A stretch of 64,000 bases of DNA, taken from contig JBBRTV010000010.1 of assembly GCA_038243995.1 (NCBI GenBank), positions 82,431 through 146,430 on the forward strand, read 5' to 3'. A program made the position numbers and the translations under genes. The DNA comes from Burkholderiales bacterium (GTDB lineage Bacteria > Pseudomonadota > Gammaproteobacteria > Burkholderiales > Burkholderiaceae_C). The notes below the pieces were generated by a model. The model did no database searches and was not told the origin of the DNA. It was given only the letters and a program-made list of their open reading frames with translations. Shown in pieces: positions 13,799-47,244 of this stretch; within the stretch, counting starts at the first letter, position 1; the number at the start of each line of letters is the position of its first letter.

Positions 13799-13803
13799 GG
13801 TAT
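13787..13803 (+). promoter_or_regulatory. Putative NagQ operator (direct repeat)
   Basis: TGGTACTATAGTGGTAT overlapping the -10 box; the same pattern recurs at three other promoters. Confidence 0.7.
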
Positions 13804-18420: not shown

Positions 18421-18484
18421 ACGCGGTCGTGCGCCGCTCGAACCCTGCTACCCCACCCGTCCCGCCGCCAGGAAAGAGACCTCC

Positions 18485-20808: not shown

Positions 20809-20903
20809 CGACAGGATGACCCGCTGCCACCCCGCCTTCGAGGCGATCGCCGTATCGACGCGGTCCGGCCGTTCCCGACACCTCATTCCATCGGACAAGT
20901 GAC

Positions 20904-22007
20904 ATGGCAAGCCTCCTCCTGAAGCAGCTTCGCAAGACCTACGACGGCGGCACCGAGATCATCAAAGGCGTGGACCTGGAGATCCGCGACGGCGAATTCA
21001 TGGTCTTCGTCGGACCGTCCGGCTGCGGCAAGTCCACGTTGCTGCGCATGATCGCGGGCCTGGAGGAGATCACCGACGGCGACCTCCACATCGGCGACCG
21101 CTGCGTCAACGAGGTGGCGCCCTCCGATCGCGGCGTCGCCATGGTGTTCCAGAGCTACGCGCTCTATCCGCACATGACCGTGGCCGAGAACATGGGCTTC
21201 GCATTGAAGCTCGCGAAGCATTCGAAGGCCGAGGTCGCCGCCGCGGTGGGCCGCGCGGCCGAGATCCTGCAGATCAACCATCTGCTCGATCGCCGGCCGA
21301 AGGCGCTCTCGGGAGGCCAGCGCCAGCGCGTCGCGATCGGCCGCGCGATCGTGCGCCAGCCCAAGGTCTTCCTGTTCGACGAACCGCTCTCGAACCTCGA
21401 TGCGGCGCTACGCGTGCAGATGCGCACCGAGCTCGCGCGGCTGCACCGCGAACTGGGCACGACCATGATCTACGTGACGCACGATCAGGTCGAAGCGATG
21501 ACCCTGGGCCAGCGCATCGCCGTGTTCGAGGCGGGCCGCATCGCCCAGGTCGGAGTGCCGATGGACCTGTACGACCGCCCCGCCAATCTGTTCGTCGCGG
21601 GATTTCTCGGCTCGCCGAAGATGAACCTGGTGCCGGTGACGGTGAGTGCGAACGATGCAGACGGTCTGCGCGTGCGCAGTCGTGTCGGACCCGGCGAATT
21701 CACGCTCGCGGCGGCAGCGGGTGGACCCGCGGTGGGCGAGCTCGCGACGCTCGGCTTCCGGCCCGACCAGGTCGAACTGGCGGTCGCCGGCTCCGGCGGG
21801 CTCGAGGGCCGGGTCGACCTGGTCGAGCGGCTCGGCGACGCGACGCTGGTGCACCTGAGCTGCGCTGGCCAGGGTGCGCCCATCGTCGTGCGCCTGCCCG
21901 GCCACGTCGCCCCGCTCGCGCCTGGAAGCGTCGTCGCGCTGCGCCCCGATCTCGCGCGCAGCCGCCTGTTCGACAGTGGCGGCGAGGCGTTCACGTTGAG
22001 CGCTTGA
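20904..22007 (+). CDS. Carbohydrate ABC transporter ATPase (MalK/MsmX-type)
   Basis: Walker A GPSGCGKS, signature LSGGQRQRVAIGRA, FLFDEPLSNLDA, YVTHDQ, C-terminal OB domain. Confidence 0.95.
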   Translation: MASLLLKQLRKTYDGGTEIIKGVDLEIRDGEFMVFVGPSGCGKSTLLRMIAGLEEITDGDLHIGDRCVNEVAPSDRGVAMVFQSYALYPHMTVAENMGFALKLAKHSKAEVAAAVGRAAEILQINHLLDRRPKALSGGQRQRVAIGRAIVRQPKVFLFDEPLSNLDAALRVQMRTELARLHRELGTTMIYVTHDQVEAMTLGQRIAVFEAGRIAQVGVPMDLYDRPANLFVAGFLGSPKMNLVPVTVSANDADGLRVRSRVGPGEFTLAAAAGGPAVGELATLGFRPDQVELAVAGSGGLEGRVDLVERLGDATLVHLSCAGQGAPIVVRLPGHVAPLAPGSVVALRPDLARSRLFDSGGEAFTLSA

Positions 22008-27731: not shown

Positions 27732-29510
27732 TCAGAAGGTTTCCCAGCTGTCGGCGCCGGTCTTCGGAATGGCGGTGCCCAAGGAGCGCGGCACCCCGGC
27801 CACTGGCGGCGATGCAGCCGCAGGCTTGGCCTTGGGGTGGAGACGGGAACCGTTCGCAGCCCGGTTCGGGCCCCGGCCATCGACCGCAGCCGCTTTGGCA
27901 GCGACCGGGGCGTCATGGGTGCCTGACCTGGTGTGGACGCCGTCGCCCAGCTTGAACACGCCGACCACTTCGGCCAAATTTGCTGCCTGGTGCTTCAGGC
28001 TCTCCGCCGCCGCGGCGCTCTCCTCGACCAGCGCCGCGTTTTGCTGTGTCACCTGGTCCAGCTGCGTGACGGCATCGCCGACCTGGCTGATGCCGGTAGC
28101 CTGTTCCTTGCTGGCGCTGGAGATTTCGCTGATGAGCTGGCTGACGCGCTGAACCTGCGAGACGATTTCGGTCATCGACGCGCCCGCATCATTGACTTGG
28201 CGCGCGCCCATCTCGACCTTCTCGACGCTGGCGCTGATCAGCAACTTGATTTCCTTGGCCGCCTCGGCCGAGCGTCCGGCCAGGTTGCGCACCTCGCTGG
28301 CGACCACCGCGAAGCCGCGACCTTGCTCGCCGGCCCGGGCAGCCTCGACCGCTGCATTCAAGGCCAGGATGTTGGTCTGGAAAGCGATGCCGTCGATGAC
28401 GCCGATGATGTCGGCGATCTTCTTCGACGACGCGGCGATGTCCTGCATGGTGTCGACCACGGTACCGACCATCTCACCGCCCTTGACCGCAGCGGCCGAG
28501 GCGCTGGCAGCGAGTTGGTTGGCCTGGCCGGCGGTATCGGCACTGGCCTTGACGGTGCCCGAAAGTTGTTCCATCGACGCGGCCGTCTGCTGCAAGTTGC
28601 TGGCCTGCTCTTCGGTGCGCTGGCTGAGGTCGGCGTTGCCAGTGGCGATCTGCGCCGAACCGGTGGCAATGCTGTCGCTGCTGTTTCGCACCTGGCCGAC
28701 GATCCTGTACAGACTCGCTTGCATGGCGCCGAGCGATGCCAGTACGCTGCCAGCGGGGGCGCCGGCTGTTCCGTCCACCGGGCTCAGGTCGCCTTCGGCA
28801 ACGCGCTGCGCGATGCTGCCCAGTTCACCGGGCTCGGCACCGAGGGCACGGGTCAAGCTGCGCGTGATCAAGATGCCGGCAGTCACGGCAGCGGTCAGTG
28901 CGACCAGGCAGGCGGCAATCAGCAGGTTCCTCTGCATCGCGTACGCGGCGGCGGCCGCGTCGGTGGACTCGACAGCGCGACCCTCGGTGAAGGCCTGGTA
29001 TTCATCGGAGGCCTTGATGAGTGCGGCAAGCAGCGGGCGACACTCGGTGTTCATCTTGTTGATCGCCTCGTCGCGCTTGCCGTCGTTCGCGAACTTCACG
29101 ATGGCCAGTGCCACGGGCCCGTAGTCCTTTTCGACCTTGGCGATCGCTTCCAGCAGGGTCCGCGCCCGTTCCGGCAAATTCGTGGCCTCGGCGACCATCT
29201 TGTTCAGCTTGCCCAGGTTCTGCTGAACATCCTCATGCGCCTTGACGACAGCAGCGTTTTCCGTTGCCAGATCCTCGGGCTTGCTGACCAGCACGAGATT
29301 TCTCGCCGCGATCGCGCGGCGGTCGACGGCCGCGCGCACGCTTGCCGCGGTCAAGGCACGTGCATTGATGCCGTGAACGTAGTCGACGAATTGCTCGTTG
29401 GAGTCAGCCAACGATTTCAAGGACAACCCGGCCACAAGCAAAACGAGGGCCGCAAGGCCTCCGAACGCCAGAGTCAGCTTGCCGCGCACTGTCATGTTGT
29501 TGAATTTCAT
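27732..29510 (-). CDS. Methyl-accepting chemotaxis protein (two TM, four-helix-bundle-type sensor)
   Basis: IDGIAFQTNILALNAAVEAARAGEQGRGFAVVASEVRNLA; C-terminal pentapeptide SWETF. Confidence 0.95.
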   Translation of the reverse strand: MKFNNMTVRGKLTLAFGGLAALVLLVAGLSLKSLADSNEQFVDYVHGINARALTAASVRAAVDRRAIAARNLVLVSKPEDLATENAAVVKAHEDVQQNLGKLNKMVAEATNLPERARTLLEAIAKVEKDYGPVALAIVKFANDGKRDEAINKMNTECRPLLAALIKASDEYQAFTEGRAVESTDAAAAAYAMQRNLLIAACLVALTAAVTAGILITRSLTRALGAEPGELGSIAQRVAEGDLSPVDGTAGAPAGSVLASLGAMQASLYRIVGQVRNSSDSIATGSAQIATGNADLSQRTEEQASNLQQTAASMEQLSGTVKASADTAGQANQLAASASAAAVKGGEMVGTVVDTMQDIAASSKKIADIIGVIDGIAFQTNILALNAAVEAARAGEQGRGFAVVASEVRNLAGRSAEAAKEIKLLISASVEKVEMGARQVNDAGASMTEIVSQVQRVSQLISEISSASKEQATGISQVGDAVTQLDQVTQQNAALVEESAAAAESLKHQAANLAEVVGVFKLGDGVHTRSGTHDAPVAAKAAAVDGRGPNRAANGSRLHPKAKPAAASPPVAGVPRSLGTAIPKTGADSWETF

Positions 29511-29572
29511 GTAATCCCAATGAGGAAATTCTAAAGCGCGATCACAAATGCGCTTCGCGATGAGTTGTCTGG

Positions 29573-29599
29573 TAATCGGCGGCTGAACCCGGGACTTGA
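29573..29599 (-). promoter_or_regulatory. Sigma28 (FliA) promoter of the MCP gene
   Basis: Minus strand TCAAG-N14-GCCGATTA, 63 bp upstream of the ATG. Confidence 0.75.
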
Positions 29600-29740
29600 G
29601 CTCCAGGTCAGGACCAATCCAGGGATGAGCCTGGAGCGTGCTGGAGTCGACTCGGAAACGGTGGCGAGCATGGATGTTCGCTTCCACCGGCCGCATCGGA
29701 ATTCGAGGTCAGTGAAAACCATCGATGTGGATGAGATGGC

Positions 29741-29757
29741 TGGTCGTATAGTGGTAT
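29741..29757 (+). promoter_or_regulatory. Putative NagQ operator upstream of TBDR2
   Basis: TGGTCGTATAGTGGTAT containing a TATAGT -10 hexamer. Confidence 0.7.
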
Positions 29758-29758
29758 T

Positions 29759-29777
29759 AAATCAACTCATTTGATTT
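29759..29777 (+). promoter_or_regulatory. Second operator (putative ROK site) upstream of TBDR2
   Basis: AAATCAA-CTCAT-TTGATTT palindrome containing the ATTTGATT core. Confidence 0.5.
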
Positions 29778-29791
29778 TAGAAAGCCGCGAC

Positions 29792-32593
29792 ATGATCCTC
29801 CAGCCTCAACCGCTCGCCGCCGCTGCGGCTCTCGTCCTGCTCGGCACCTGCGTTCCGGCGCAGGTACTGGCCCAGGCTGCCGCTGCGCGGGCGGCCGCGG
29901 CCGCGGCGACGGCTCCGGCCGCGACGCCGGCGTCCGCAGCCGCGGCGGACGAACTCCAGCACGTCGAGGTCACCGGCCTGCGCGCCTCGCTCGAGCAATC
30001 GCTCGCCAAGAAGCGCAACGCCGATTCCGTCATCGAGGTCGTGACCGCCGACGACATCGGCAAGCTCCCCGACAAGAACGTCGCCGATGCGATCCAGCGC
30101 GTGCCGGGCGTCAATATCGCGTCGTCGGCGGGCGGGGAAGGCGGCTTCTCCGAGAACGACCGCGTGAGCATCCGTGGCACCAGCCCCAGCCTGACGCAGA
30201 CGCTGATCAACGGGCATGCCGTCGCCTCCGGCGACTGGTTCATCCTCGACCAGCAGGGCGTGGTGGGACGCAGCGTCAGCTATTCGCTGCTGCCGTCGGA
30301 GATCGTCAAGTCGGTGACCGTTGCCAAGAGCCAGACCGCCGACCTGCCCGAAGGTGGCGTCGCGGGCTCGGTGAACATCGAGACGCGCCGTCCGCTCGAC
30401 TTCAGCAAGGCGCTCACCGTCGAACTCGCCGCGCAGGCGATCTACGCCGACCTCGCCAGGCGCACCGACCCGCAGTTCAACGGGCTGCTCAACTGGAAGA
30501 ACGAGGCCGGCACCCTCGGCGTCCTGTTGCAGGCGTTCTCCGAAACCCGACACGAGCGCCGCGACGGCCAGGAGACGTTCGGCTACGGCACCATAGACCC
30601 CGGCAGCGCCGCGGCGGTCGCCCACCCCGACCTGGCGAACGTGCTCGTGCCCTACGGCGTCAACTCGGCCTTGTTCGAGCAGACGCGCAAGCGCACCGGC
30701 GGACTGGTCGACCTGGAACTCAAGCCGAACAGCCAGCTCACGCTCGACCTGAACGGCTTCTATTCCCGCCTGAACGCGAGCAACTACAACCGCAGCTTCT
30801 ACAGCACGCCGGCCAGCCTCGTGATCGCGGCGGTTCCCGACAGCTACACCGTGCGCAACAACACGCTGGTGGCCGCGAATTTCTCTCCCGCGGCGGTGGC
30901 CGCCGGCATCGCCGCGACGACCGATCCGGGCGCGCTGTTCCAGGCGGTGCCGGCCGAGGTCGACCAGCTCTATCGCCCGAACGAGGGCGCCGAGACGTAC
31001 TACGGCGACTTGAGCGCCAGGTACCGGGCGACGGACAGCCTCACGATCACGACCAACCTCGGCTACACGCACGGCGTCGGCAAGACGCCCAACGAATACG
31101 GCTACTCGGCGGGCATCGGCCTGGACGGCACGGTCGGCATGAACTACGCGCTGCACGGCATGGGGGCCGCCGACCTCGCGCTCCCGGGCGCCGACGTGGC
31201 GAACTTCGGCACGTCGGCGTTCACCGAAGGCGGCGCGCACGACCAGGTGTTCACGTACGACAGCGAGAAATATGGCGGCGTGGACGCCGAGCTCGCGCTC
31301 GACCACGGCATCTGGGAGTCGGCCAGGTTCGGCGCGCGTTACGTAGAGCACAGCCGCCGCACGGCCTGGCCCGTCAACGACAGCTGCCAGGGCCCGGACA
31401 ATGCGGCGAATCCCGGCCCGTGCGACTTCTCGTACGGTGCGCCACGGCCGGCCTGGACTCCCGGCCACGTCTATCCCGGCAACTTCGGATCGGGTTTCGG
31501 CGGCGGCCCGGGGTCCCTGAAGAACGTGTGGCAGCTCGCGCCGTCGGACGTGGAGACGTGGGTGAAGCAGTACGCAAGCAACGGCGGCTTCGCCAGCACC
31601 GAGAACTGGCCCGCAGAATTCAGCGTGCGCGAAAGGGACACGGCTGCCTACGGCATGGTCAACCTCGCCGGCGACCGCTGGCGGGGCAACGTCGGCCTGC
31701 GCGTGGTGTCGACGCACCAGATGTCGATTTCCAACCTGTCGACGGGCGACGCGGATCCGGGCGGCAACTCGCATGGGCTCTACACGCCGACGCTCGTGGA
31801 CCACACGTTCACCGACCTGCTGCCGAGCGCCAACTTCAGGTTCGACCTGGGCAAGGACCTCGTGACGCGCGTCGCCGTCGCGCGCACGATGGCGCGCGCC
31901 GACTACAGCGCGCTGGCGACGGCGGTCTCGCTCGATGACACGCTGCACACCGGCAGTGGCGGCAACCCCAACCTGAAGCCCGTGCGCTCGACCAACTACG
32001 ACGCCACGCTCGAGTGGTACTTCGCGCCCAAGTCGCTGCTCTCGGCCGGCGTGTTCTACATGGACATCTCGTCCTACGTCGACTACGGTTCGGCTCCGGC
32101 CACCTACACCGACACCACCCACGGGGGCCACCCGGCGGTCTACGACATCACGTCGCCCGTGAACATCGCCGCGACCAACAAGGGCATCGAGCTGGGCTAC
32201 CAGCAGGCGCTGTGGTGGAACCTGGGCGTGGTCGCGAACTACACGTACACCGACGGCAAGACGGCGTCGGGCGCGGAGATGGTGGGCAACTCGAAGAACA
32301 CCTGCAACCTCGAGGCCTACTTCGACAACGACGTGCTGAGTGCCCGCCTCGCGTACACGTATCGCTCCAGCTTCCTGGCGGGCCTGAACTCCAGCTTCGC
32401 CCAGCACGAGGACGGCGTCGGCGAGCTGGCCGCATCGATGGCCTACAAGTTCAGCAAGAACCTCACGTTCACGTTCGACGCGCTCAACCTCAACAACCCC
32501 ACGTTGAAGTACTACGGCGAGAACAGGAGCCAGATGGAAGCGCTCTATACCAGCGGCCGCCAGTTCTACCTGGGCGTGCGCGTGTCGCTCTGA
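29792..32593 (+). CDS. TonB-dependent receptor 2
   Basis: Signal peptide, VEVTGLRASL, ADDIGKLPDKNVADAIQRVPGV, GNPNLKP, GRQFYLGVRVSL. Confidence 0.95.
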   Translation: MILQPQPLAAAAALVLLGTCVPAQVLAQAAAARAAAAAATAPAATPASAAAADELQHVEVTGLRASLEQSLAKKRNADSVIEVVTADDIGKLPDKNVADAIQRVPGVNIASSAGGEGGFSENDRVSIRGTSPSLTQTLINGHAVASGDWFILDQQGVVGRSVSYSLLPSEIVKSVTVAKSQTADLPEGGVAGSVNIETRRPLDFSKALTVELAAQAIYADLARRTDPQFNGLLNWKNEAGTLGVLLQAFSETRHERRDGQETFGYGTIDPGSAAAVAHPDLANVLVPYGVNSALFEQTRKRTGGLVDLELKPNSQLTLDLNGFYSRLNASNYNRSFYSTPASLVIAAVPDSYTVRNNTLVAANFSPAAVAAGIAATTDPGALFQAVPAEVDQLYRPNEGAETYYGDLSARYRATDSLTITTNLGYTHGVGKTPNEYGYSAGIGLDGTVGMNYALHGMGAADLALPGADVANFGTSAFTEGGAHDQVFTYDSEKYGGVDAELALDHGIWESARFGARYVEHSRRTAWPVNDSCQGPDNAANPGPCDFSYGAPRPAWTPGHVYPGNFGSGFGGGPGSLKNVWQLAPSDVETWVKQYASNGGFASTENWPAEFSVRERDTAAYGMVNLAGDRWRGNVGLRVVSTHQMSISNLSTGDADPGGNSHGLYTPTLVDHTFTDLLPSANFRFDLGKDLVTRVAVARTMARADYSALATAVSLDDTLHTGSGGNPNLKPVRSTNYDATLEWYFAPKSLLSAGVFYMDISSYVDYGSAPATYTDTTHGGHPAVYDITSPVNIAATNKGIELGYQQALWWNLGVVANYTYTDGKTASGAEMVGNSKNTCNLEAYFDNDVLSARLAYTYRSSFLAGLNSSFAQHEDGVGELAASMAYKFSKNLTFTFDALNLNNPTLKYYGENRSQMEALYTSGRQFYLGVRVSL

Positions 32594-32660
32594 CGCCGAC
32601 GCGGCCCCGCCGCATCGATGCCGAAGAGACTGGAATATCCTGCCCTGCCCGATCGCCGGC

Positions 32661-33977
32661 TCAGTGCAGGTCGCCAGGTTCCGGCTCGCCTCCCCCGGCA
32701 TGGATGTGGCGGCTCGCGCGGCGCGTGGCGATGGTCACCAGCACGACCAGCACCGGCACGCTGGCGCCCACGACGAGATCGGGGTTCAGGCCGATGCCGA
32801 TGCTCTTGAGCCCCTTGGCCGCATAGCCGACCAGTCCGGCGGCGTAGTACACGATGGCGGCGACGGAGAGGCCTTCGACGGTCTGCTGCAGTCGCAACTG
32901 CAACTTCGCGCGCCGATCCATCGACGCCAGCAAGGCCTGGTTCTGGCGTTCGCGGGCGATGTCGACCCGCGTGAGCAGCAAGCCGCTCGCGCGCGCGACC
33001 CGTTCGGACAGGGCGTGGAGGCGTTCCGCGACGGCCGCGCAGGTGGCGATGGCCGGCGTGAACCGGCGCGCCATGAATTCCTCGATGGGCTGGACGCCGG
33101 GCAGGCGGCGCTCGCGCAGTTCGTCGATCCGCGCGCGCACCAGGTCGCCGTACGCGCGACAGGCGCTGAAGCGGAACTGGCTGCCCGCCAATCCGCTCTC
33201 GACCTGGGCCGCCAGGTCGGTGAGCCGATGGAGGAGCGCCTCGTCGTCCCGCGAGTCCTCGGCGATCGCGGCGGTGATGGAGGCGAGGGCCGCCTCCAGC
33301 GTCGCGAGCCGGGCCGATTGCTGGTGGGCGATGGGCAAGGCCAGCAAGGCCATCATCCGGTAGGTCTCGATCTCCAGCAGGCGCTGCATCATCCGGCCCG
33401 TCTGGCGTACGGTGAACCCCGCGTCGACCAGGAGAAAGCGCGAGTAGCCGTCGGCATGGATCCGGAAGTCGGTGTAGGCCGCGCCCGCCCCGTCCCCCAC
33501 TTCGCCGCCCGCCACGACGTTGCCGTCGAAATGCGCAGCGATGAAGTCGGCGTCGCAAGTCGCCGGCGCGGCGATCACCTTGCAGTGGGTCGCGACCAGC
33601 GTGCGCCCGGGAATCGCGGCCAGCCAGCCGGGAGGCAATCGCATCACGGGCGGCTCGCTGAACGGCGCGGGGCTGAGCCCGGCGAGCCTGAACGTGTAGC
33701 CCGAGAACTCGCTGTGGCGCTCCCACCGCACGTGCAGTTCGCCGAGCCGCACGCTGAAATGGTTGGACGACGCGTCGGGCGGCTCGACGCCGAAACCCGC
33801 GCACAGGGCGGCGAGGTGCTCGAGCTCGCGTGCCCGGTCGTCCGGGGCGATCAGCACCGCCAGGAAGCTCGCGCGAGACGGCGTCGCGATCGCTTCGGAG
33901 GGGCGCGCATGCACCTCGCCGGCGAGCAGCGAGCGCAGGGGATGTTGGCAGGCCAGGAGTGGCGATTCAGGAAGCAT
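32661..33977 (-). CDS. DUF3422 family membrane-anchored protein
   Basis: GEVHARP, RWERHSEFSGYTF, GRMMQRLLEIETYRMMALLALP, LRLQQTVEGLSVAAIVYY. Confidence 0.85.
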   Translation of the reverse strand: MLPESPLLACQHPLRSLLAGEVHARPSEAIATPSRASFLAVLIAPDDRARELEHLAALCAGFGVEPPDASSNHFSVRLGELHVRWERHSEFSGYTFRLAGLSPAPFSEPPVMRLPPGWLAAIPGRTLVATHCKVIAAPATCDADFIAAHFDGNVVAGGEVGDGAGAAYTDFRIHADGYSRFLLVDAGFTVRQTGRMMQRLLEIETYRMMALLALPIAHQQSARLATLEAALASITAAIAEDSRDDEALLHRLTDLAAQVESGLAGSQFRFSACRAYGDLVRARIDELRERRLPGVQPIEEFMARRFTPAIATCAAVAERLHALSERVARASGLLLTRVDIARERQNQALLASMDRRAKLQLRLQQTVEGLSVAAIVYYAAGLVGYAAKGLKSIGIGLNPDLVVGASVPVLVVLVTIATRRASRHIHAGGGEPEPGDLH

Positions 33978-34178
33978 GGGTGGCCTTCGGTCCGCGTGCG
34001 GACGCCGGCGATGCGCGCCGTCGGCTGCGACCGGGTGTCGCCCCCGAAATGTAGGGCGCTTCGGGGCCCGGAGGCAACGTACACCGGCGCCGGCGTGCCG
34101 ACCCGGGCGCGGCGCGCTGGCGCGAAGCGAGGCACACTCTGGAGGCAACGAGTCGTTGCGTCGACCGAGAACCCGCAC

Positions 34179-34610
34179 ATGCCCTCCCGCAACATCACGC
34201 GAAGAAGCGCCGCGATCCTGGTGGCCAGCCTGCCCGTCGGGCGCTTCGCGTTCGCCGCCCGCGAGGGCGTGGAGATCAGGTTCGTGATCAAGCGCGAACA
34301 GCGCCAGCCCTCGGGGGCCATCGCGGAGCGCCGCTTCGAGAACGCCATGCTGATGGCGTCGGGTGAGACGATGGAAGTCGACTTTCGCGACGAATATCGC
34401 ATCCGCATGACGACGACGATCGCCGGGGCGTCCGCCAACGTCAAGCTCCAGGTGTGGGACAACCACGAGACGGGCACACGCGCCGATGCCGGCCAAGCCA
34501 TGACGAGCGTTCCCCTGGACGGGGAGACGACGCTGACGCTGCTCAAGTCGGACAACGTCCATTATCCGATCGTCCTGAAGGCGACGCGCCGCGCGCTCTC
34601 CACCCGCTGA
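34179..34610 (+). CDS. Hypothetical exported protein (143 aa)
   Basis: N-terminus MPSRNITRRSAAILVASL...FAFA resembles a signal peptide; beta-rich body; no family recognised. Confidence 0.5.
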   Translation: MPSRNITRRSAAILVASLPVGRFAFAAREGVEIRFVIKREQRQPSGAIAERRFENAMLMASGETMEVDFRDEYRIRMTTTIAGASANVKLQVWDNHETGTRADAGQAMTSVPLDGETTLTLLKSDNVHYPIVLKATRRALSTR

Positions 34611-34615
34611 GGACG

Positions 34616-34650
34616 AAAAAATCCGGTCGACACCCCGAAGCGTCGACCGG
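34616..34650 (-). terminator. Intrinsic terminator (probably for the GH8 gene)
   Basis: A-run followed by CCGGTCGAC-N10-GTCGACCGG. Confidence 0.55.
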
Positions 34651-34770
34651 CTCGCAATGCCCAAGGGAATTGGGCTCGCCCGAAATCGAATTCCGGCAGC
34701 GTCGCCTGCAGCCGCAGGATCGCCTCTCCAGGGCGCCCTAACCCCTGCGCGCGGCGGCGGCGTCAGTGCG

Positions 34771-36189
34771 TCAAGGCGTCCACCAGTTGCCCGACACGGT
34801 GATCAGCACCTGCATGCGGATCGTGTCGCCGTAGTAGTCGTTGGTGGTGCCGTAGTCGCCGCCGGTGATCGAGGTCCACAGGCTGTTGAGCCAGGCCTGG
34901 CCGGCGGAGCCGCCGAGCATCGCGTCGACGGCCATCGGCGCCGTGAACGCCAGGTCGTCGTAGCTCACGTACGACTTCCCGTTGGTACCGTTCTTGATGT
35001 AGTAGCCCGCGCGCACCTTGTTGGGCGTGCCCCCGGTCAGGCCCCGGATCCACGACGCGGTTTTCACCTGCGTCGCCTGCATGTCGGTCTTGCCGTTGGC
35101 AATGTAGGACATCGACAGGCGCCACGGCGTGCGGCAGGCGTTGTAGTCGAAGTCGCCGTCGTGCTTCGTCTCGAGATAGGTGCCCGGGACCGGCACGAAG
35201 TTCGAGCCCGAGAGCACCATGAAGTCAGGGAGGATGCCGGTCGCGCCGCTGCCGTGCGCGTACTGGTAGTTCACGATCGTCGAGACCTCGTTGTAGACGT
35301 TGTTCCACTTCGAGGTGTTGGCCGTGTCGTATTTCGCGAACGCGATGAAGTGATCCGTCATGTAGTCCGACGGGCGCGTGTGGTTCTCGTCGCTGGTCGT
35401 GCCGTGTGCCCAGTCGCCGGCGGTCAGGTTCCAGTGGGTCTGGTTGACGTCCCAGGTCAGGATGTCGTGGAGGATGGCGAGCGCCGCGGCCTTGTAATCG
35501 ATGCTGCCCGAGGAGCCCCACTGCTGGTCGGCGACCAGCAGGCCGTAGGCGATGTCGAGGTCGCCGTCGGTCGCCGAATCGGCGCCCTCGACGTTCTTCA
35601 TCGTGCCGCCCGACAGCGACTGCTTCCACGCCATCAGGTGCGGGCCGTTGGTGCTGTAGTGCTTCGTGTAATAGCCGTACATCGCATCGAACGTCGACTG
35701 GTCGGCCATGTACGCGGAAATCACCATGCCGTAGCCGTGCGCCTCGGAGACGGTGTTGTTGCCGCTGTCGTACTTGACCCAGGTTCCCTGTCCGCCGCTG
35801 GTGCGCAGGTAGGTCGTCTTCCAGCTCGCATAGAGGCTCTGCACCTTCGCGTCCATCGTCGATTGCGAGACGTTGGTCGGCTTGATGACGCCGCTCGTGT
35901 AGGTGGTGTGGTGCGGGAACGGCTTCGTGGCGGCCAGCGGCACCGTGGCCAGGGGCTCGGCGACAGCGCCGGCGAGCGCGGCGCTGTCGGATTCGGTCGT
36001 CGCCGACTCGATGCCCATGGATCGCGCATCGCCCGCAGGCGCGCGGGCGTGCGTGGCGCGCACGCCGACGCTCGCCGACTGGGGCGTCGTGACGGGGGCG
36101 ACCGGCGTGCTGTCCGCGCCGCCGCCGCAGGCCGCCAGCAAGGCAGCCGTCACGAGCGACAACGGAAATCCCATCTGTCTCGTCTTCAT
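34771..36189 (-). CDS. GH8 chitosanase/lichenase-type lipoprotein
   Basis: Lipobox LAAC; KPFP...GVIKP, VSEAHGYGM, DSATDGDLDIAYGLL, TRPSD, TGILPDF, YNACRTPWR, VSGNWW.P match Bacillus GH8 chitosanases from recall; AGGAG RBS. Confidence 0.85.
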   Translation of the reverse strand: MKTRQMGFPLSLVTAALLAACGGGADSTPVAPVTTPQSASVGVRATHARAPAGDARSMGIESATTESDSAALAGAVAEPLATVPLAATKPFPHHTTYTSGVIKPTNVSQSTMDAKVQSLYASWKTTYLRTSGGQGTWVKYDSGNNTVSEAHGYGMVISAYMADQSTFDAMYGYYTKHYSTNGPHLMAWKQSLSGGTMKNVEGADSATDGDLDIAYGLLVADQQWGSSGSIDYKAAALAILHDILTWDVNQTHWNLTAGDWAHGTTSDENHTRPSDYMTDHFIAFAKYDTANTSKWNNVYNEVSTIVNYQYAHGSGATGILPDFMVLSGSNFVPVPGTYLETKHDGDFDYNACRTPWRLSMSYIANGKTDMQATQVKTASWIRGLTGGTPNKVRAGYYIKNGTNGKSYVSYDDLAFTAPMAVDAMLGGSAGQAWLNSLWTSITGGDYGTTNDYYGDTIRMQVLITVSGNWWTP

Positions 36190-36207
36190 CGATATCTCCT
36201 CGAGTTC

Positions 36208-36215
36208 AATCAAAT
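36208..36215 (-). promoter_or_regulatory. ATTTGATT motif upstream of the GH8 gene
   Basis: Plus strand AATCAAAT, 18 bp upstream of the start codon. Confidence 0.45.
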
Positions 36216-36399
36216 CGGAATCGCATCGGGCAGCGCCCGCGATGGGGCGCCGCGCGTCTGGCCGGTTGTTCTGCGCAGAGTGGATCGATCTCCTTGGGAC
36301 GGGCGGGGCTTCGTTCAACACCCTCGCCGTGCGCGATTGCAGCGCGCAGGCGGGAACGAGCGGGACGTGTGTCGCGGGTCGACGGGCGCGCGGGGCCGG

Positions 36400-37626
36400 T
36401 CACGCATGCGCGTCGACCTTCAGCAGCACGCCCAGGTTGGGATTGAGTTCGTCGAAGATCGGCAGCGCGGCGGCACCGAGCGCGGCGGTGTCGTGGCCCG
36501 CCAACCCCGCGATGACGCGCGGCGTCTGGCGATTGCGGCGCGCGGCCACGGAGGTGTGGAGCGGCTCGAGGCGCTCGATCAGCAGCGCGAGCACCGACGA
36601 CGGCAGGAAGCCCCCGATGACGATCGCCTCGGCGTCCAGCAGCGACTCGAGGATGTTGACGGCCTGGCGCAGGCGCTGCGCCGCCTCGTCGAGCCAGGCA
36701 TCGAGGCGCGCGCGCGCCACGGGGCTCGGATCGAGCAGCATCTGCGGGCTGGCGTGCGCGATGTCGCCCAGCTCGAGCGCCTCGTAGGCCGCCTGCAACG
36801 AAACGTAGCGCTCCAGGCAGCCCCGGTTGCCGCACGGGCAGGGGCGGCCGTCCGGCACCACGATCATGTGCCCGATCTCGCCCGCGTTGTGGCCCGAGCC
36901 CTTGTACAGGTGGCCGTCGTGGAACATGCCGGCGCCGAGGCCCGTGCCGATGAACAGGTAGGTGAAGCTGCGGAAGGTGCGCGCGACGCCGTGCAGGCGT
37001 TCGCCGATCGCCGCGGCGGTGGCGTCGTTCTCCATGATCACCGGCAAGCCGATCGCCTGGCCGATCTGCTGCGCGATCGACAGGTCTTGCCAGCCCGGCA
37101 GGGCCGTGGGGCCGACTGCGCTGAGACCTTCGACGTCGAACGGGCCCGGCACTGCGAGGCCCACGCCCAGCACGCGGCTCCATTCGACGTCCGACGACTT
37201 CTTCAGCGTTTCGACCACGTCGCGCACCAGCGGCAGCGCCTGCGCCGGCGTCGGATGATCGACCGCCAGCGTGCAGCGACCGCGCACCTTTCCCGAGAGG
37301 TCGACCACGACCGCCACCATCGTGCGCTGGTCGATCTGCAATCCGATCGAATAGGCGCCGTCCGGATTGATGACGAACGGCGTCGCCGGCTGCCCGCGCG
37401 TGCCGCGCTCGGGCTCAAGCGCATTCAGGAAGCCGAGCTTCTGCAGCTCGCTGGCGATGTTGGAGATCGTCTGCGGGGTCAATGCCGTCAAGCGGGCGAT
37501 GTCGGCCCGGGTCAGTCGGCCGTGCAGGCGAATGGCCTCCATCACCACGCGCCGGTTGTGCGAACGCGCGAATTCGAGGTTGGTGCCGGACAGGCTGGCG
37601 ACGGGAGGCATGTTCACCGGAGGCAT
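36400..37626 (-). CDS. ROK family transcriptional repressor
   Basis: HTH TRADIARLTALTPQTISNI, MENDATAAAIGE, GTGLGAG, GEIGHM...CPCGNRGCLE. Start is 37626 or 37611. Confidence 0.93.
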   Translation of the reverse strand: MPPVNMPPVASLSGTNLEFARSHNRRVVMEAIRLHGRLTRADIARLTALTPQTISNIASELQKLGFLNALEPERGTRGQPATPFVINPDGAYSIGLQIDQRTMVAVVVDLSGKVRGRCTLAVDHPTPAQALPLVRDVVETLKKSSDVEWSRVLGVGLAVPGPFDVEGLSAVGPTALPGWQDLSIAQQIGQAIGLPVIMENDATAAAIGERLHGVARTFRSFTYLFIGTGLGAGMFHDGHLYKGSGHNAGEIGHMIVVPDGRPCPCGNRGCLERYVSLQAAYEALELGDIAHASPQMLLDPSPVARARLDAWLDEAAQRLRQAVNILESLLDAEAIVIGGFLPSSVLALLIERLEPLHTSVAARRNRQTPRVIAGLAGHDTAALGAAALPIFDELNPNLGVLLKVDAHA

Positions 37627-37647
37627 GGCGATTGAAGGCGATTGCAG

Positions 37648-37670
37648 TTTATTAAAATAATCAAATTGAA
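37648..37670 (-). promoter_or_regulatory. Putative ROK autoregulatory site
   Basis: Minus strand TTCAATTTGATTATTTTAATAAA, a very AT-rich island upstream of the ROK gene. Confidence 0.5.
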
Positions 37671-37911
37671 GTAATACTCGCGAACCCTGAGCGGGGGCGT
37701 TGGCAGGCTGAACCGCGCTTGCCCGATAGCCGCCACGCGCCGGCGCACGACGCACCCGACGTCGATTGGAACTGGCCGCGTCCGGTGTCGCCGGCCGCCG
37801 CACTGTGCCCTCTGACGGCGGCGTTGCGCGCCTTCATTGTGACGTCGATGGGGGGAACGCCGTTGTCATCCGCAGCGATGACGCCGGGTGTAAACCCTCT
37901 CCGTCGGGAAC

Positions 37912-37964
37912 TTGACCACCCGGGCCCTCGTTCTGATAATGAAAACAATTTGATTTAAACCAAA
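37912..37964 (+). promoter_or_regulatory. Sigma70 promoter and putative ROK operator of the ABC operon
   Basis: TTGACC-17 bp-GATAAT, then AAAACAA-T-TTGATTT (imperfect palindrome, 37942-37956) followed by AAACCAAA. Confidence 0.65.
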
Positions 37965-37967
37965 CCG

Positions 37968-39350
37968 ATGACCTGCCTGGATTTCTCGTTGTCCGCGGCC
38001 TGCTCCCGCCCCGCTCCGCCCCGCGCATTTCGTGCCGGGACGCCGGGCGCCGCTGCGCGGCTGCTGGCGGCAGCCTTCCTGGCCACGGCGACGTGCACGA
38101 ACGCTGGCGCCACCGAATTGACGATGTGGGTCATGCCGGTGACGACCAACGCCGCGCACGACATCCCCGCGCTGATCGCCCCCTGGCTCGCCCTCCACCG
38201 GGACGTCACGCTCAAGCTGACCGTGCTGGACTGGGAGTCCGGCTGGAACAAGATCACCGCGGCAGCGGCCTCGCGCCGCGGCCCCGACCTGCTCGAACTC
38301 GGCACCACGTGGATGCCGGCGATCGCGGCGATGGGCGGCCTCGAGCCGCTCAGCGCGGCGCAGCTGGCGCAGGTCGACAACGGCGCGGCCTACTTCCCCG
38401 AATTGTGGAAGACGACGCAGATCTTCGGCCGCAAGGGCGTGTACGGGCTGCCCTGGTACGCCGACGTCCGTGCGGCCTACTACCGCACCGACGCCTTCCG
38501 CCAGGCCGGCGTCGACCCGCAGCAGGCCTTCGCCACGTGGGAAAGCTTCCATGCGGCGCTGAAGAAGATCGACGGCCAGGTCGTCGGCGGCAGGAAGATC
38601 CACGCGCTCGCCTATGCCGGCAAGAACGACTGGAACGTCGTCCACAATCTCGCGCCCTGGATCTGGAACGCGGGTGGCGATGTGCTCACCGCCGATGCGA
38701 AGCATTCCGCGCTGGACACGCCGCAGGCGCTGAGCGCGATCGACTTCTACTCGTCGCTCGCGGTGGAAGGGCTCGTGCCATCCAACGCGCTCGAGAAGGA
38801 TTCCGACATCCTCGAAGGCGCCTTCGTCGGTGGCGACTACGGCGTGATCTTTTCCGGATCCTGGCTGATACGCCGCATCTTCGAGGCGCCCAAGGGCTCG
38901 CCGGTGCAGGGCAATTTCGACGTCGCGCCCTATCCCGCGGGGGCACACGGCCACGCGACATTCTTCGGCGGCTCCAATCTGGCGATCTTCAAGGGCTCGC
39001 GGCACAAGGCCGAAGCCTGGGAGCTGCTGAAATACCTCGGCGCGAAGCCGGCGCAGATCGCGCTGACGCGGATGTCGTCGATGATGCCGACGCGCCCCGA
39101 CGCCGCCGCCGATGCGGCGCTCACCCCGCGCCATCCTGCCTACGCGAAGCTCGCCGCGATCGCCGTCGACGGCCGCGCGTATCCGCCGATCCCGGCGTGG
39201 GGGCCGCTCGAGACGGTCTACACAAAGCACCTGGGGCAGCTCGCGGAGCTGTCGTCGGGCATCTCCGGCCCCTACAGCTTCGCGGCGATGAAGGCCCTGA
39301 TCGCCGGCACGGTCATCGAAGCCGACAAGGTGCTGGAGGAGGCGAATTGA
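37968..39350 (+). CDS. Carbohydrate ABC transporter solute-binding protein
   Basis: GPDLLELGTTW, YGLPWYADVR, FFGGSNLAIFKGS, EAWELLKYL; start codon uncertain. Confidence 0.9.
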   Translation: MTCLDFSLSAACSRPAPPRAFRAGTPGAAARLLAAAFLATATCTNAGATELTMWVMPVTTNAAHDIPALIAPWLALHRDVTLKLTVLDWESGWNKITAAAASRRGPDLLELGTTWMPAIAAMGGLEPLSAAQLAQVDNGAAYFPELWKTTQIFGRKGVYGLPWYADVRAAYYRTDAFRQAGVDPQQAFATWESFHAALKKIDGQVVGGRKIHALAYAGKNDWNVVHNLAPWIWNAGGDVLTADAKHSALDTPQALSAIDFYSSLAVEGLVPSNALEKDSDILEGAFVGGDYGVIFSGSWLIRRIFEAPKGSPVQGNFDVAPYPAGAHGHATFFGGSNLAIFKGSRHKAEAWELLKYLGAKPAQIALTRMSSMMPTRPDAAADAALTPRHPAYAKLAAIAVDGRAYPPIPAWGPLETVYTKHLGQLAELSSGISGPYSFAAMKALIAGTVIEADKVLEEAN

Positions 39351-40393
39351 CCGCCCCCGCGACCTGGGCCGCGGACGAGCGACCGCTACTCGGGGTCGCC
39401 GGCGGCGCCGCCGCGAGCGATCCGGCGGCGCCGCCGGCGCAGGGCCGCCCCGACCCTGCGCGCCGTCCCGCGCGCAGGAAGCGCTTCGACGCCTTCCCGT
39501 GGCTGCTGCTGGCGCCGGCCGCCACGATGATGCTGCTGGTCAACCTGGTGCCTGTCGTCCAGGGCTTTCGCATGTCTTTGCGCAAGCTCAACCAGTACAC
39601 GCTGAACCAGTTCCTCGATGCGCCCTTCGTCGGCCTGCGCAACTACCGCGGCGTACTGTTCGACGCCGACAATCCGGTGCACAGCGGCATGCTGCTCGCG
39701 CTGCGCAACACCGGGCTGTACTCGCTGCTGGTGACGGCCTGCGCCGTCTCGCTCGGGCTGGCCGTGGCGCTCCTCCTGAATCGCGACTTTCCCGGCAAGG
39801 CGGCCGCGCGCACGCTGCTGATGTTGCCCTGGGTCGTGCCGACCTACGTCGTCGGCACGCTGTGGGGCTTCATGTGGCAGCGCGACGAGGGCATCATCAA
39901 CCACGTGCTCGTCGATGTGTTGCACCTGATGGACCACAAGCCCTTCTGGCTGATCGGCAGCAACACCTTCTTCGCGATCGTCATCCCCACGGTCTGGCGC
40001 GCCTGGCCGGTGCTGATGCTGATCTTCCTCGCGGCGCTGCAGTCCGTGCCGGAGGAACTGTACGAGGCCGCGAAGCTCGACGGCGCGAACGCGTGGCAGC
40101 GCTTCCGCAACATCACGTTGCCCATGCTGAAGCCGGTGATCGTGATCCAGGTGATGTTCCAGGTCATCGACAACATCTACTCGTACAACATCGTCGCGAT
40201 GATGTTCGGCAAGGGCGCGGGCTACCCGGGCGAATGGGGTGACCTGCTGATGCCGCTGCTGACGCGCCAGAGCTTCAGCTACTGGCGCTTCGGCGAGGGC
40301 GCGGCGGTCTCGTTCGTGATGATGGCCGTCATGCTGGTGTTCGTCGGCGTGTGGATGCGCGCGTTCCGCAGGAGCATGACCGATGGCGCATGA
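39347..40393 (+). CDS. Carbohydrate ABC transporter permease
   Basis: FVGLRNY, RTLLMLPWVVP, EELYEAAKLDGANAWQRFRNITLPMLKP (EAA loop); TTG start overlapping the SBP stop. Confidence 0.92.
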   Translation: MTAPATWAADERPLLGVAGGAAASDPAAPPAQGRPDPARRPARRKRFDAFPWLLLAPAATMMLLVNLVPVVQGFRMSLRKLNQYTLNQFLDAPFVGLRNYRGVLFDADNPVHSGMLLALRNTGLYSLLVTACAVSLGLAVALLLNRDFPGKAAARTLLMLPWVVPTYVVGTLWGFMWQRDEGIINHVLVDVLHLMDHKPFWLIGSNTFFAIVIPTVWRAWPVLMLIFLAALQSVPEELYEAAKLDGANAWQRFRNITLPMLKPVIVIQVMFQVIDNIYSYNIVAMMFGKGAGYPGEWGDLLMPLLTRQSFSYWRFGEGAAVSFVMMAVMLVFVGVWMRAFRRSMTDGA

Positions 40394-41321
40394 CCGCCCA
40401 CGGCTCCCGGCGGCTGCGGCCCCCGGGATGCGCTCGTCCGGCCCGGGGCGGCCCGGCGCTCGCCCGCGCAAGCGCTCCTCGCGCAAGGCATGGAACCAGC
40501 GTGCCCTGAACGCGCTCACCTGGGCCATCGTCGCGCTCACGCTGTCGCCCGTGGCGTTCATGGTCTACGCCTCGCTGTCCGACTACAACGACATCGCGGC
40601 CGGCGCGCTGGTGCATGCCGCCTTCACGCCGCACTGGTCGAACTACCGCGAAATGTGGGTCAACGTCGACTTCCTCTCGTTCCTGCGCAACAGCCTGATC
40701 ATCTGCGGCCTCACGACGGTGATCTCGACCTTCCTGGCCAGCCTCGCCGCCTATGCCCTTGCGCGCTTCCGCTTCCGCGGCAACCACGCGTTCAGTGTCG
40801 CGGTGAGCACGACGCAGGTGATCCCCGGCATGCTGTTCTTCCTGCCGCTGTACATGCTCTACATCCAGCTCGACGACGCCGGGCTCCCCATGATGAACAC
40901 GTACCACGGGATGATCTTCCTGTACTGCGCGATGTTCACGCCGGCGAGCATCTGGATCATGCGCGGCTTCTTCGTCTCGATTCCGCGCGACCTCGAGGAC
41001 GCCGCCGTGATCGACGGCTGCTCGCGCTTCGGCGCCTTCATCCGCATCGTGCTGCCGATCAGCGCGCCCGGCATCATCGCGACGGCTTCTTTCGTGTTCC
41101 TGCTGGCGTGGGACGAGGTCTTTTTCGCGTGGGTGCTCACCTCGTCGCCCGACGTGCAGACGGTGCCGGTCGGCCTGCGTCTCTACATGGGCCAGCACGC
41201 GACCCGCTACGACCTGATGATGGCCGCCGCCGTCGTCAGCGTGATTCCCGTGCTGCTGACGTTCTTCGCCTCCCAGCGCTGGTTCATCAAGGGACTGGCA
41301 GCCGGCGCGGTCAAGGGATGA
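40383..41321 (+). CDS. Carbohydrate ABC transporter permease
   Basis: LRNSLII, YALARFRFRG, IPRDLEDAAVIDGCSRFGAFIRIVLP, RYDLMMAAA. Confidence 0.92.
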   Translation: MAHDRPRLPAAAAPGMRSSGPGRPGARPRKRSSRKAWNQRALNALTWAIVALTLSPVAFMVYASLSDYNDIAAGALVHAAFTPHWSNYREMWVNVDFLSFLRNSLIICGLTTVISTFLASLAAYALARFRFRGNHAFSVAVSTTQVIPGMLFFLPLYMLYIQLDDAGLPMMNTYHGMIFLYCAMFTPASIWIMRGFFVSIPRDLEDAAVIDGCSRFGAFIRIVLPISAPGIIATASFVFLLAWDEVFFAWVLTSSPDVQTVPVGLRLYMGQHATRYDLMMAAAVVSVIPVLLTFFASQRWFIKGLAAGAVKG

Positions 41322-41328
41322 CGACCCC

Positions 41329-42471
41329 ATGGACGCCCCCGACCGAGCCGATTCCGTCGACGCCCATCGCGACGACGTCGTCGATGCGCACGTCCCGAAC
41401 ACCAACACTGCGCCCGCTGCCATCGCAGCCCGCGCGCCCGAACCGCGCTCCATGACGACTTCCATTTCAACGAGAGCGCCCGCGACGGGCCCCCTTCCCG
41501 CGCTGCCGACCGCCCCGCGCGTGCTCGCCTTCGACATCGGCGGCACGTGGGTCAAGATCGGCGTCGTCGATGCCACGGGTGCCGTGTTGCATGTCGAACA
41601 GCTGGCGACGCAGAGCGTGCCCGACGGCAAGGCCCTGCTGGCGCGACTGCTGACGATCGCCCGGCCCCTGGTCGCGAGCTGGGCGCCCGTCGGCGTCGCG
41701 TTCTCCACCCTGGGCATCATCGACCCGCGCGAAGGTCGTCTCGTCGGTGCCGTCGAGGCGATCGAAGGCTATTTCGGCCAGTCGCCAAAGGCGTCCTTCG
41801 AAAGCGCGTTCGGGCTGCCGGTCGTGGTCGAGAACGACGGCAACTGCGTCGCCCTCGCCGAGGGCTGGACGGGGTCCGCCGTAGGCCTGAAGCACTACAT
41901 CGCGCTCACGCTGGGCACCGGCATCGGCGGCGGGATCGTGATCGACGGTCGCCTCTACCGCGGCGCCAACGGCGCGGCCGGCGAATGGGGCTACATGCTG
42001 GTGGAGGGCAAGGTATGGGAAGACCACGCCTCGCCACGCGGACTCGCCGCGGCGGCCGAGCGCGCGCGCCCCGGCTGCGGCTACGACGCCGCGGCGGTCT
42101 TCGCCGCGCGCGACGCCGGGGACGACGTCATGCGCGGGGTGCTCGCGCAGTGGTTCGCGCTGCTCGCCACCGGCCTGGCGAACCTGCTGTTCGCGTTCAA
42201 TCCGGCGCGCGTCATCATCGGCGGCGGCATTACCGCGCGCGGCCCGGACTTGCTACAGGAATTGCGCGCCGAGATGCGGCTGCGGCTGCGGCCCGATTTC
42301 TACCGGATGTGCGACATCGTGCTGGCCAGCGCCGGCAACCAGGCCGGCCTGCTCGGCGCCGCGCGACGCTGGCTGGACGAACTCGGCGGCGCGAACGCGC
42401 CCGCGTCGCCCGCCACCCCCTTGTCCCCGCCGCCGGCGGACCGCGCGCCGTCGCCATCCGCTTCCGCCTGA
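41329..42471 (+). CDS. ROK family sugar kinase (candidate glucosamine or glucosaminide kinase)
   Basis: FDIGGT, VENDGNCVALAE, LGTGIGGGI, GAAGEWGYM; no HTH. Start is 41329 or 41452. Confidence 0.85.
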   Translation: MDAPDRADSVDAHRDDVVDAHVPNTNTAPAAIAARAPEPRSMTTSISTRAPATGPLPALPTAPRVLAFDIGGTWVKIGVVDATGAVLHVEQLATQSVPDGKALLARLLTIARPLVASWAPVGVAFSTLGIIDPREGRLVGAVEAIEGYFGQSPKASFESAFGLPVVVENDGNCVALAEGWTGSAVGLKHYIALTLGTGIGGGIVIDGRLYRGANGAAGEWGYMLVEGKVWEDHASPRGLAAAAERARPGCGYDAAAVFAARDAGDDVMRGVLAQWFALLATGLANLLFAFNPARVIIGGGITARGPDLLQELRAEMRLRLRPDFYRMCDIVLASAGNQAGLLGAARRWLDELGGANAPASPATPLSPPPADRAPSPSASA

Positions 42472-42476
42472 TCGCC

Positions 42477-44207: not shown

Positions 44208-44246
44208 CCCCGCAGCGCCGAAGACGCAAGCCTCGAGGCCTCGCTC

Positions 44247-47036: not shown

Positions 47037-47244
47037 GCGGCGCTCCGGGGTCGTCCCGAACGGCCACCGGAATCTCCTGCGCACGCAGCCGCCCAGGCCG
47101 GTCGTGCGACGGTTTATGGCGGGCTGCGATCTTCCAGGTGGCACAAGGGCGGGCCTGGCGCCTGGATCCGTTGCAGCGGGGTCGACAGCCCGCCACCCAT
47201 TTTGCGCGCATCTGGTTACATCCACGCATCGAACGACAAGCATC

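Follow-up and report, generated by a model that had tools for sequence, protein, structure and literature searches.

A 25-bp quasi-palindrome as the predicted operator of a local ROK regulon at a putative chitosan-utilization locus of a Burkholderiales bacterium

What does a short AT-rich word stand for when it recurs before several genes of one locus? The question is raised by a stretch of 64,000 nucleotides (hereafter the window, C10:82431-146430, on contig JBBRTV010000010.1) from the 6.04-Mb genome of a Burkholderiales bacterium (68.8% GC). There, the 8-mer ATTTGATT precedes four genes of a putative chitosan-utilization locus: rok, encoding a regulator of the ROK family; the first gene of a predicted ATP-binding cassette (ABC) transporter operon, encoding a solute-binding protein (SBP); TBDR2, encoding a TonB-dependent receptor (TBDR); and GH8, encoding a glycoside hydrolase of family 8. 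A preliminary description took the 8-mer as the operator of the ROK regulator. The word does mark a local regulon of this adjacent regulator, but the functional unit is probably longer, namely a 25-bp AT-rich quasi-palindrome made of two 10-bp arms, ATTAAATCAA and TTGATTTAAT, separated by a 5-bp spacer (N5). Three full predicted operators of this kind, the only three in the whole genome, are located at the rok, ABC-operon and TBDR2 promoters, and the ROK regulator is likely to control its local regulon through them. The regulon idea was largely right, with the operator redefined as a 25-bp palindrome and the sites reduced to three.

The 8-mer is a genuine signal of the locus. An exact string search of the window recovers the four copies described before (Table 1) and finds zero elsewhere, as an inspection by eye had suggested, whereas dinucleotide shuffles of the window (n = 100) contain 0.21 copies on average and none of them (0/100) contains four. 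Genome-wide, the string is counted 24 times. Although the word was picked post hoc, its clustering holds because it is unique among the 1023 AT-rich 8-mers (at most one G or C) counted over the whole genome: it is the sole one (1/1023) reaching four copies in any 8.2-kb span and, within the window, the only one present in more than two copies. All four copies are carried by the sense strand of the respective downstream gene and stand close to its start codon, two features that had also been proposed. The gaps to the ATG amount to 15 nt for TBDR2 (ATG at 29792, a small correction of the start codon assigned earlier), 18 nt for GH8 (36189), 32 nt for rok (37626) and 12 nt for the SBP gene (37968). 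The ABC copy, said to lie just past the -10 box, is found 7 nt downstream of a sigma-70-like promoter, and the imperfect palindrome AAAACAA-T-TTGATTT is present there as reported. The sense orientation near starts also evoked an RNA-level element in the 5' leaders; this candidate was rejected, as no Rfam match with E<=1 is found in 29000-38500 and the sites are palindromic promoter DNA.

The copies at TBDR2, rok and the ABC operon are each embedded in a full predicted operator. When the whole 6-Mb genome is scored with a larger matrix, trained on the sites of other genomes, the rok site ranks first, the TBDR2 site second and the ABC site third; the next best position reaches 22.6 bits, and random sequence of 6 Mb at the genome GC tops out at 15 bits. 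An independent matrix, built only from the sites of a genome of another Burkholderiales family (G237) and of Pseudomonas, ranks the same three sites first, second and fourth among all genome positions. The search for further regulon members returned no other genome position above 23 bits, and none at the N-acetylglucosamine (GlcNAc) utilization (nag) cluster of the window or at its MalK-like ATPase gene. In the 25-bp frame, positions -6 and -5 are T and C, positions +5 and +6 are G and A, and the arms have the polarity AAAT...ATTT. The rok operator covers the nucleotides 24-48 before the rok ATG. Within the unit, the 8-mer takes up positions 14-21 at the TBDR2 and ABC sites but 10-17 at the rok site. 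Since the palindrome is self-similar at a 4-bp shift (TTGA-TTGA, AAAT-AAAT) and these registers differ, the recurrence of the 8-mer and its shared gene orientation would be by-products of the palindrome. The tie of TBDR2 to the ROK regulator, which had been drawn from the 8-mer, is borne out by the full operator at its promoter.

Conservation was followed at the loci of ROK orthologues fetched from 11 close relatives (92-95% identity; Scleromatobacter humisilvae and metagenome-assembled genomes), five Pseudomonas genomes (52-55%), G237 (57%) and distant alphaproteobacterial homologues. Among the close relatives, intergenic DNA has diverged, with a mean column identity of 46-57% (46% for the divergent rok-ABC region). 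Against this background, some ten related genomes show conserved operator blocks at the three promoters (rok, ABC and TBDR2). The rok side displays the invariant island GGGTTGnCGAGcATTACTTCAATTTGATTATgTTAATAnACT (12 genomes aligned), and the ABC side the invariant island CTTGACC-N17-GATAATGCAAACAAATTGATTTAAC, in which GATAATGCAAACAAATTGATTTAAC is the conserved form of the relatives' ABC operator. The TBDR2 block ATTAAATCAACTCATTTGATTTGA is almost invariant in eight aligned genomes, with a single substitution in one relative. Two genomes of this alignment (L005:10790-10990 and L011:6020-6220) carry the same cassette, composed of a second motif described below (motif 2), the -10 box and the operator, before a non-orthologous TBDR, only 28-35% identical to TBDR2; as aligned, the control region is retained and the receptor gene is a different one. 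In every relative with sufficient sequence, the locus contains these three sites and no further one. It is the palindrome that is kept in orthologues, whereas the exact 8-mer varies: at the ABC site, the relatives have AAATTGATT in place of AATTTGATT, which argues that the exact 8-mer is not the conserved unit.

Beyond the genus, the palindrome travels with the regulator gene. In G237, the perfect palindrome ATTAAATCAACTTGATTGATTTAAT, which reads ATTAAATCAA-CTTGA-TTGATTTAAT, is found upstream of the rok orthologue, between it and an operon encoding an ABC ATPase, an SBP, two permeases, a SIS deaminase-like protein and a ROK kinase. The five Pseudomonas genomes carry ATTAATTCAACTTGATTTAATTAAT (ATTAATTCAA-CTTGA-TTTAATTAAT) between rok and an operon for an APC permease, a ROK kinase and a NagB-II-like SIS protein. 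For four alphaproteobacterial homologues that were outside the training set, the top match of each 21-kb locus falls within the roughly 135 bp preceding the point where the ROK match begins, these sites being AATAAAT-type variants. In silico, a site upstream of the regulator's own gene is also found for ROK orthologues of three other lineages. Because the palindrome follows ROK orthologues into lineages with different target genes, the motif is assigned to the adjacent ROK regulator. Limited literature searches returned no prior description of the operator or of the orthogroup.

The position of the sites relative to the predicted promoters is compatible with repression. Each operator overlaps a predicted -10 box or transcription start, as judged from predicted sigma-70 elements whose hexamers are conserved in the relatives. 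The ABC operator begins at the -10 box and extends to about +13, downstream of a promoter of which both hexamers are conserved in relatives with a variable spacer. The rok operator stands between the two promoter hexamers, with the GATTAT -10 box inside it; the -35 box is TTGACG or TTGTCG in relatives versus TTCGCG here. At TBDR2, the operator starts 2-3 nt past the -10 box and spans about -4 to +21 of the predicted start. All three operators would stand inside the RNA polymerase footprint, which fits repression and negative autoregulation, as described for NagC, Mlc and CsnR (PMC4288165, PMC6097792). In the proposed mechanism, a dimer or tetramer of the ROK protein bound to the three operators would block RNA polymerase, and an amino-sugar effector, probably glucosamine (GlcN), its oligomers (GlcN)n or GlcN-6-P, would release it from DNA. 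These effectors are suggested by the SIS deaminase-like genes of orthologous operons, by the exo-glucosaminidase-type GH9 and by the ROK kinase. Release would then induce the regulator itself, the operon for the SBP, permeases, ROK kinase, GH9 and TBDR1, and TBDR2.

GH8 requires a separate explanation. The preliminary description tied it to the ROK regulator by the motif; this is not supported: the copy is a single arm without phylogenetic support, and as a full operator it reaches only -4.2 bits in its best 25-bp frame, while more than 1200 genome positions score above 0. The history of the locus offers another route to control. In relatives (L001-L011), the rok stop is directly followed by a 3' flank of about 78 nt that includes an intrinsic terminator; in the window, this flank is found at 34611-34688 (88-92% identity), after GH8, and the rok-GH8 interval contains no terminator-like site. 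The GH8 gene and its 210-bp leader have therefore been inserted between the rok stop and the rok terminator. Lying within the rok transcription unit, GH8 most likely shares its transcript with the regulator gene and comes under the rok operator, with no site of its own. Devoid of a full operator, GH8 would be controlled from the rok operator through this co-transcription. The relatives lack the gene at their loci, rok and TBDR2 being convergent neighbours there, and it is missing from the 13 other genomes of the genus as well (0/13). Orthologues occur in two of 150 other family genomes sampled, both lacking a ROK orthologue and any TTGATT within 10 kb. The DUF3422 gene and the gene for a methyl-accepting chemotaxis protein (MCP) are likewise absent from the relatives' loci. 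In four relatives (L002, L004, L006 and L007), the interval from the rok terminator to the TBDR2 stop holds about 300 conserved nt with a strong hairpin, GAGGTGAGCCGAGAGACGCGGCTCACCTC, and a block, CACCAATGTACTACCAG; the window has DUF3422 there, and this segment may correspond to a small RNA or a bidirectional terminator.

Several other explanations deserve to be weighed against a ROK regulon with three 25-bp operators. That the oriented 8-mer itself is the recognition unit, its four equivalent copies defining four separately controlled units including GH8, is improbable. Four exact sense-strand copies at 12-32 nt from start codons speak for it, as does the GH8 arm, of which 0.007 copies are expected by chance in 210 bp. 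However, the relatives' AAATTGATT variant, which in one of them occurs at the rok site too, the palindromic nature of the conserved blocks (24-41 bp) and the varying register of the 8-mer within the operator all point to the larger unit; moreover, the GH8 copy lacks a second arm and has a negative score, and GH8 is a recent insertion whose orthologues elsewhere have no nearby TTGATT. A milder version, in which the GH8 half-site acts as an auxiliary site by weak or cooperative binding, or as a roadblock in the transcribed rok-GH8 region giving extra control of GH8, is doubtful but deserves more credit than the 8-mer unit. Indeed, the arm alone reaches 12.8 bits, on par with the weaker arms of the full operators (12.0 and 9.8). 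Its chance occurrence is unlikely (0.007 such arms expected in the 210-bp rok-GH8 spacer), and it sits directly before the GH8 ribosome-binding site; yet no partner arm exists at either spacing, no conservation supports it, and the intergenic DNA around it, at 69% GC, shows no recognizable promoter.

The palindromes could also be bound by another protein, such as Fur, an H-NS-like silencer or another global factor, which is very improbable. TBDRs are classic Fur targets, the Fur regulon comprises dozens of sites, and the classical Fur box consensus is GATAATGATAATCATTATC. The ABC site agrees with 13 of the 19 positions of this box (counted by hand), and in a genome of 69% GC, AT-rich stretches draw nucleoid proteins. 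Nevertheless, three sites in 6 Mb contrast with the dozens of a Fur regulon, the receptors here are of the carbohydrate type TIGR01782, the motif accompanies ROK orthologues at loci without any TBDR, and its base-by-base invariance indicates a sequence-specific factor rather than a nucleoid protein. There is hardly any chance that the conserved blocks are core promoter only, i.e., -10 boxes and UP-like elements sharing words by accident: each site does overlap or abut a predicted -10 box, but the offset of the operator from this box differs among all three promoters, the palindrome is common to non-homologous promoters and distant taxa, and its scores are far above random.

The preference for a ROK regulon with 25-bp operators has its own weak points. 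A 21-bp palindrome (10-1-10, with the core TCAA-N-TTGA) suits rok, ABC, Pseudomonas and G237 but fails at TBDR2 (5/10 symmetric) and at the Dankookia homologue, whereas the 10-5-10 frame suits each site equally well or better. The latter geometry is therefore preferred, though not regarded as proven, and an operator tolerating both arm spacings may exist. The following points weigh against the proposed regulon. The rok, ABC, Pseudomonas and G237 sites fit the 10-1-10 frame too, a double fit due to the self-similarity at a 4-bp shift, and only TBDR2 and one alphaproteobacterial site discriminate. The rok and ABC arms are symmetric at only 6-7 of 10 positions, the relatives-trained matrix is not independent of the orthologous sites of the window, and chitosan as the substrate is deduced entirely from homology. 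Besides, two of the three promoters also carry motif 2, so that control is more complex than a single repressor.

This second motif (consensus GTGwAAACCmTC) has two copies in the 6-Mb genome, both at this locus, before the TBDR2 and ABC operators and not at the rok promoter. Both are conserved in the relatives. Genomes of the same genus contain from zero to three copies each, and those that can be placed against a known rok position are all at this locus. The start of motif 2 precedes that of the operator by 43-47 bp, and the two centres are about five helical turns apart. It was rejected as a degenerate operator arm (arm scores of 4.5 and -7.5 bits) and as an ECF-type (extracytoplasmic function) or divergent-promoter -35 box, given an unsuitable spacing and the lack of the divergent MCP gene in relatives. 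Motif 2 may be an activator site. A bipartite control of the ABC and TBDR2 promoters, in which the ROK protein or a ROK-dependent partner would contact motif 2 and so create a DNA loop or bend, or alternate between repressing and activating, is conceivable but rather unlikely; if true, contact of motif 2 by ROK would be an operator use not described for ROK regulators. In the middle of the rok-ABC intergenic region, relatives L002-L010 also share a small conserved inverted repeat, TTCTCGGGC-CAGAATG (alignment columns ~280-300), which the window does not have.

Another element at the TBDR2 promoter is a direct repeat of the NagQ type (motif taken from PMC4494728) overlapping the -10 box. The pattern TGGTnnT-N4-TGGTAT has two matches in the window versus 0 expected, the other one (13787-13803) belonging to the promoter of the nag cluster (TTGACA, ~17 nt, TATAGT; roughly 13772-13800). 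As relatives are without this repeat at TBDR2, GlcNAc-dependent control of TBDR2 may have been added in this genome. No GntR-family gene was located among the open reading frames scanned. The nag cluster itself (13812-22007) encodes a BadF-type kinase, a NagA-like amidohydrolase, a SIS NagB-II-like protein, a GH3, an MFS transporter and a MalK-like ABC ATPase (20904-22007); its SIS NagB-II-like gene (15839-16861) is 53% identical to the SIS gene of the ROK-linked operon of Pseudomonas.

The regulator consists of a winged helix-turn-helix (HTH) and a ROK sugar-binding domain. Pfam detects ROK at 143.6 bits, with HTH_24, MarR_2 and HTH_Crp_2 matches at residues 82-126 of the long open reading frame, and the closest solved structures are the ROK regulators 7rhe, 3bp8 and 1z6r. 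Judged by the NCBIfam equivalog scores (NagC 99 bits for a cut-off of 650; Mlc 115.5 bits for a cut-off of 530), it is a ROK-family protein that is neither NagC nor Mlc. In ROK regulators, a glycine/arginine linker following the HTH contributes to operator recognition (PMC4288165). This linker reads ERGTRGQPATP in the window protein. Its RGQP part and the recognition helix LT.QT(I/V)SNI.SEL are retained in the orthologues of G237 and Pseudomonas, which have the motif in common, and both differ in the alphaproteobacterial homologues.

The features of the locus are collected in Table 1, with gene calls from Pfam, NCBIfam and PDB comparisons. The predicted ABC operon (37968-48453, +) is characterized by short gene gaps and a gene order that is the same in relatives, and it has no ATPase gene of its own. 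Its last gene may be the one encoding an HGSNAT-like membrane acetyltransferase, possibly acting on glucosamine residues.

Table 1. Predicted control elements and genes of the ROK locus (window coordinates)
Feature	Position	Strand	Description
TBDR2 operator (predicted)	29756-29780	+	ATTAAATCAA-CTCAT-TTGATTTTAG; holds 8-mer copy 29769-29776 (+); 36.4 bits
rok operator (predicted)	37651-37675	-	In rok sense ATTACTTCAA-TTTGA-TTATTTTAAT; holds 8-mer copy 37659-37666 (-); 42.2 bits
ABC-operon operator (predicted)	37935-37959	+	GATAATGAAA-ACAAT-TTGATTTAAA; holds 8-mer copy 37948-37955 (+); 32.1 bits
8-mer copy at GH8	36208-36215	-	Lone half-site TTGATTGAAC; 8 nt upstream of GH8 Shine-Dalgarno
ABC-operon promoter (predicted)	37912-37940	+	TTGACC, 17 nt, GATAAT; 10/12 consensus positions
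rok promoter (predicted)	37657-37684	-	-35 TTCGCG 37679-37684, 16-nt spacer, -10 GATTAT 37657-37662
TBDR2 -10 box (predicted)	29747-29752	+	TATAGT; TATGAT in relatives, CGTATgAT conserved in alignment
Motif 2, TBDR2 side	29712-29723	+	GTGAAAACCATC; begins 44 nt upstream of operator start
Motif 2, ABC side	37888-37899	+	GTGTAAACCCTC; begins 47 nt upstream of operator start
NagQ-type direct repeat	29741-29757	+	TGGTCGT-ATAG-TGGTAT(T); overlaps TBDR2 -10; this genome only
Ancestral rok intrinsic terminator	34623-34650	-	12-bp stem then T-run; now downstream of GH8
MCP (chemotaxis receptor)	27732-29696	-	
TBDR2	29792-32593	+	TonB-dependent receptor; Pfam Plug and beta-barrel; carbohydrate-type NCBIfam TIGR01782, 586 bits
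DUF3422	32661 to ~33950	-	
GH8	34771-36189	-	Chitosanase/glucanase subgroup; Pfam GH8; closest structures glucanase 5xd0, chitosanases 1v5c and 7cju
ROK-family regulator (rok)	36400-37626	-	408 aa
SBP	37968-39350	+	First gene of predicted ABC operon
Two permeases	~39440 to 40393; 40383-41321	+	
ROK kinase	41329-42471	+	Without HTH
GH9	~42477-44207	+	Exo-beta-glucosaminidase subgroup; PDB 3h7l, 6gdt, 5dgq at E 1e-152 to 1e-164
TBDR1	44247-47036	+	
HGSNAT-like membrane acetyltransferase	47104-48453	+	HGSNAT/DUF5009 domains; directly after TBDR1

By function and layout, the closest known system appears to be that of CsnR (csnREFGHK and csnA) in Streptomyces lividans/coelicolor, where this ROK repressor controls the genes for a chitosanase and for the uptake of chitosan oligosaccharides (PMC6097792, PMC3048496). 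That system combines a ROK repressor, an ABC transporter, a glycosidase, a kinase and a chitosanase, with 3-4 boxes per genome and (GlcN)2 as the effector (PMC6097792). As for CsnR, a site upstream of the regulator's own gene implies autoregulation here, the cluster would encode an SBP with two permeases, a glycosidase and a sugar kinase, and a chitosanase-type gene, recognized here by homology, belongs to the predicted regulon. In both cases, sites are few (about three per genome here), the operator is palindromic and located at promoters, and chitin/GlcNAc seems to depend on a separate regulator, to which the NagQ-type repeat points here and which is DasR in Streptomyces. The operators themselves differ, since the CsnR box AGGAAANTTTCCT covers 13 bp whereas the palindrome described here is a 25-bp AT-rich element of 10-5-10 architecture; in the window, the CsnR box has two matches only, each with 2 mismatches (at 1776 and 45706), and none at the locus promoters. 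Likewise, the Gram-negative layout adds two TBDRs, GH9 stands here in place of a GH4 glycosidase and GH8 in place of a GH46 chitosanase, and the regulator gene is divergent from the transporter operon, whereas the CsnR gene is the first of its operon.

NagC and Mlc of E. coli offer a second comparison. They share with the regulator studied here the winged HTH, the G/R-motif linker and the ROK domain (PMC4288165). Long AT-rich quasi-palindromic operators overlapping promoters (23 bp for NagC/Mlc) and a link to amino-sugar metabolism are also common features. In the NagC/Mlc operator, the only invariant positions are TT/AA at +/-5,6 of the 23-bp quasi-palindrome (PMC4288165). These are replaced here by T-C / G-A, the arms read AAAT...ATTT here versus TTT...AAA there, and the predicted regulon is local with three sites, unlike those of NagC and Mlc. 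For ROK regulators of other sugar-utilization loci, for example in Thermotogae (PMC3553997), local regulons were similarly deduced by comparative genomics from a conserved palindrome upstream of the regulator and of its transport and hydrolase neighbours, with another lineage, motif and substrate.

A ROK repressor acting on palindromic operators at sugar-utilization promoters is already known in general, and the present case is a solid, unsurprising further one. It provides a candidate operator and a three-site regulon for an uncharacterized ROK orthogroup present in one Burkholderiales genus, a second Burkholderiales family and some Pseudomonas. In the case of GH8, a new hydrolase gene would have been put under existing control by insertion between the stop codon and the terminator of the regulator gene, without evolving a new operator. 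Deletion of the regulator or mutation of its operators should derepress the genes for chitosan degradation and uptake. The locus suggests that the Streptomyces CsnR chitosan system has a Gram-negative counterpart, to which TonB-dependent uptake across the outer membrane would be added.

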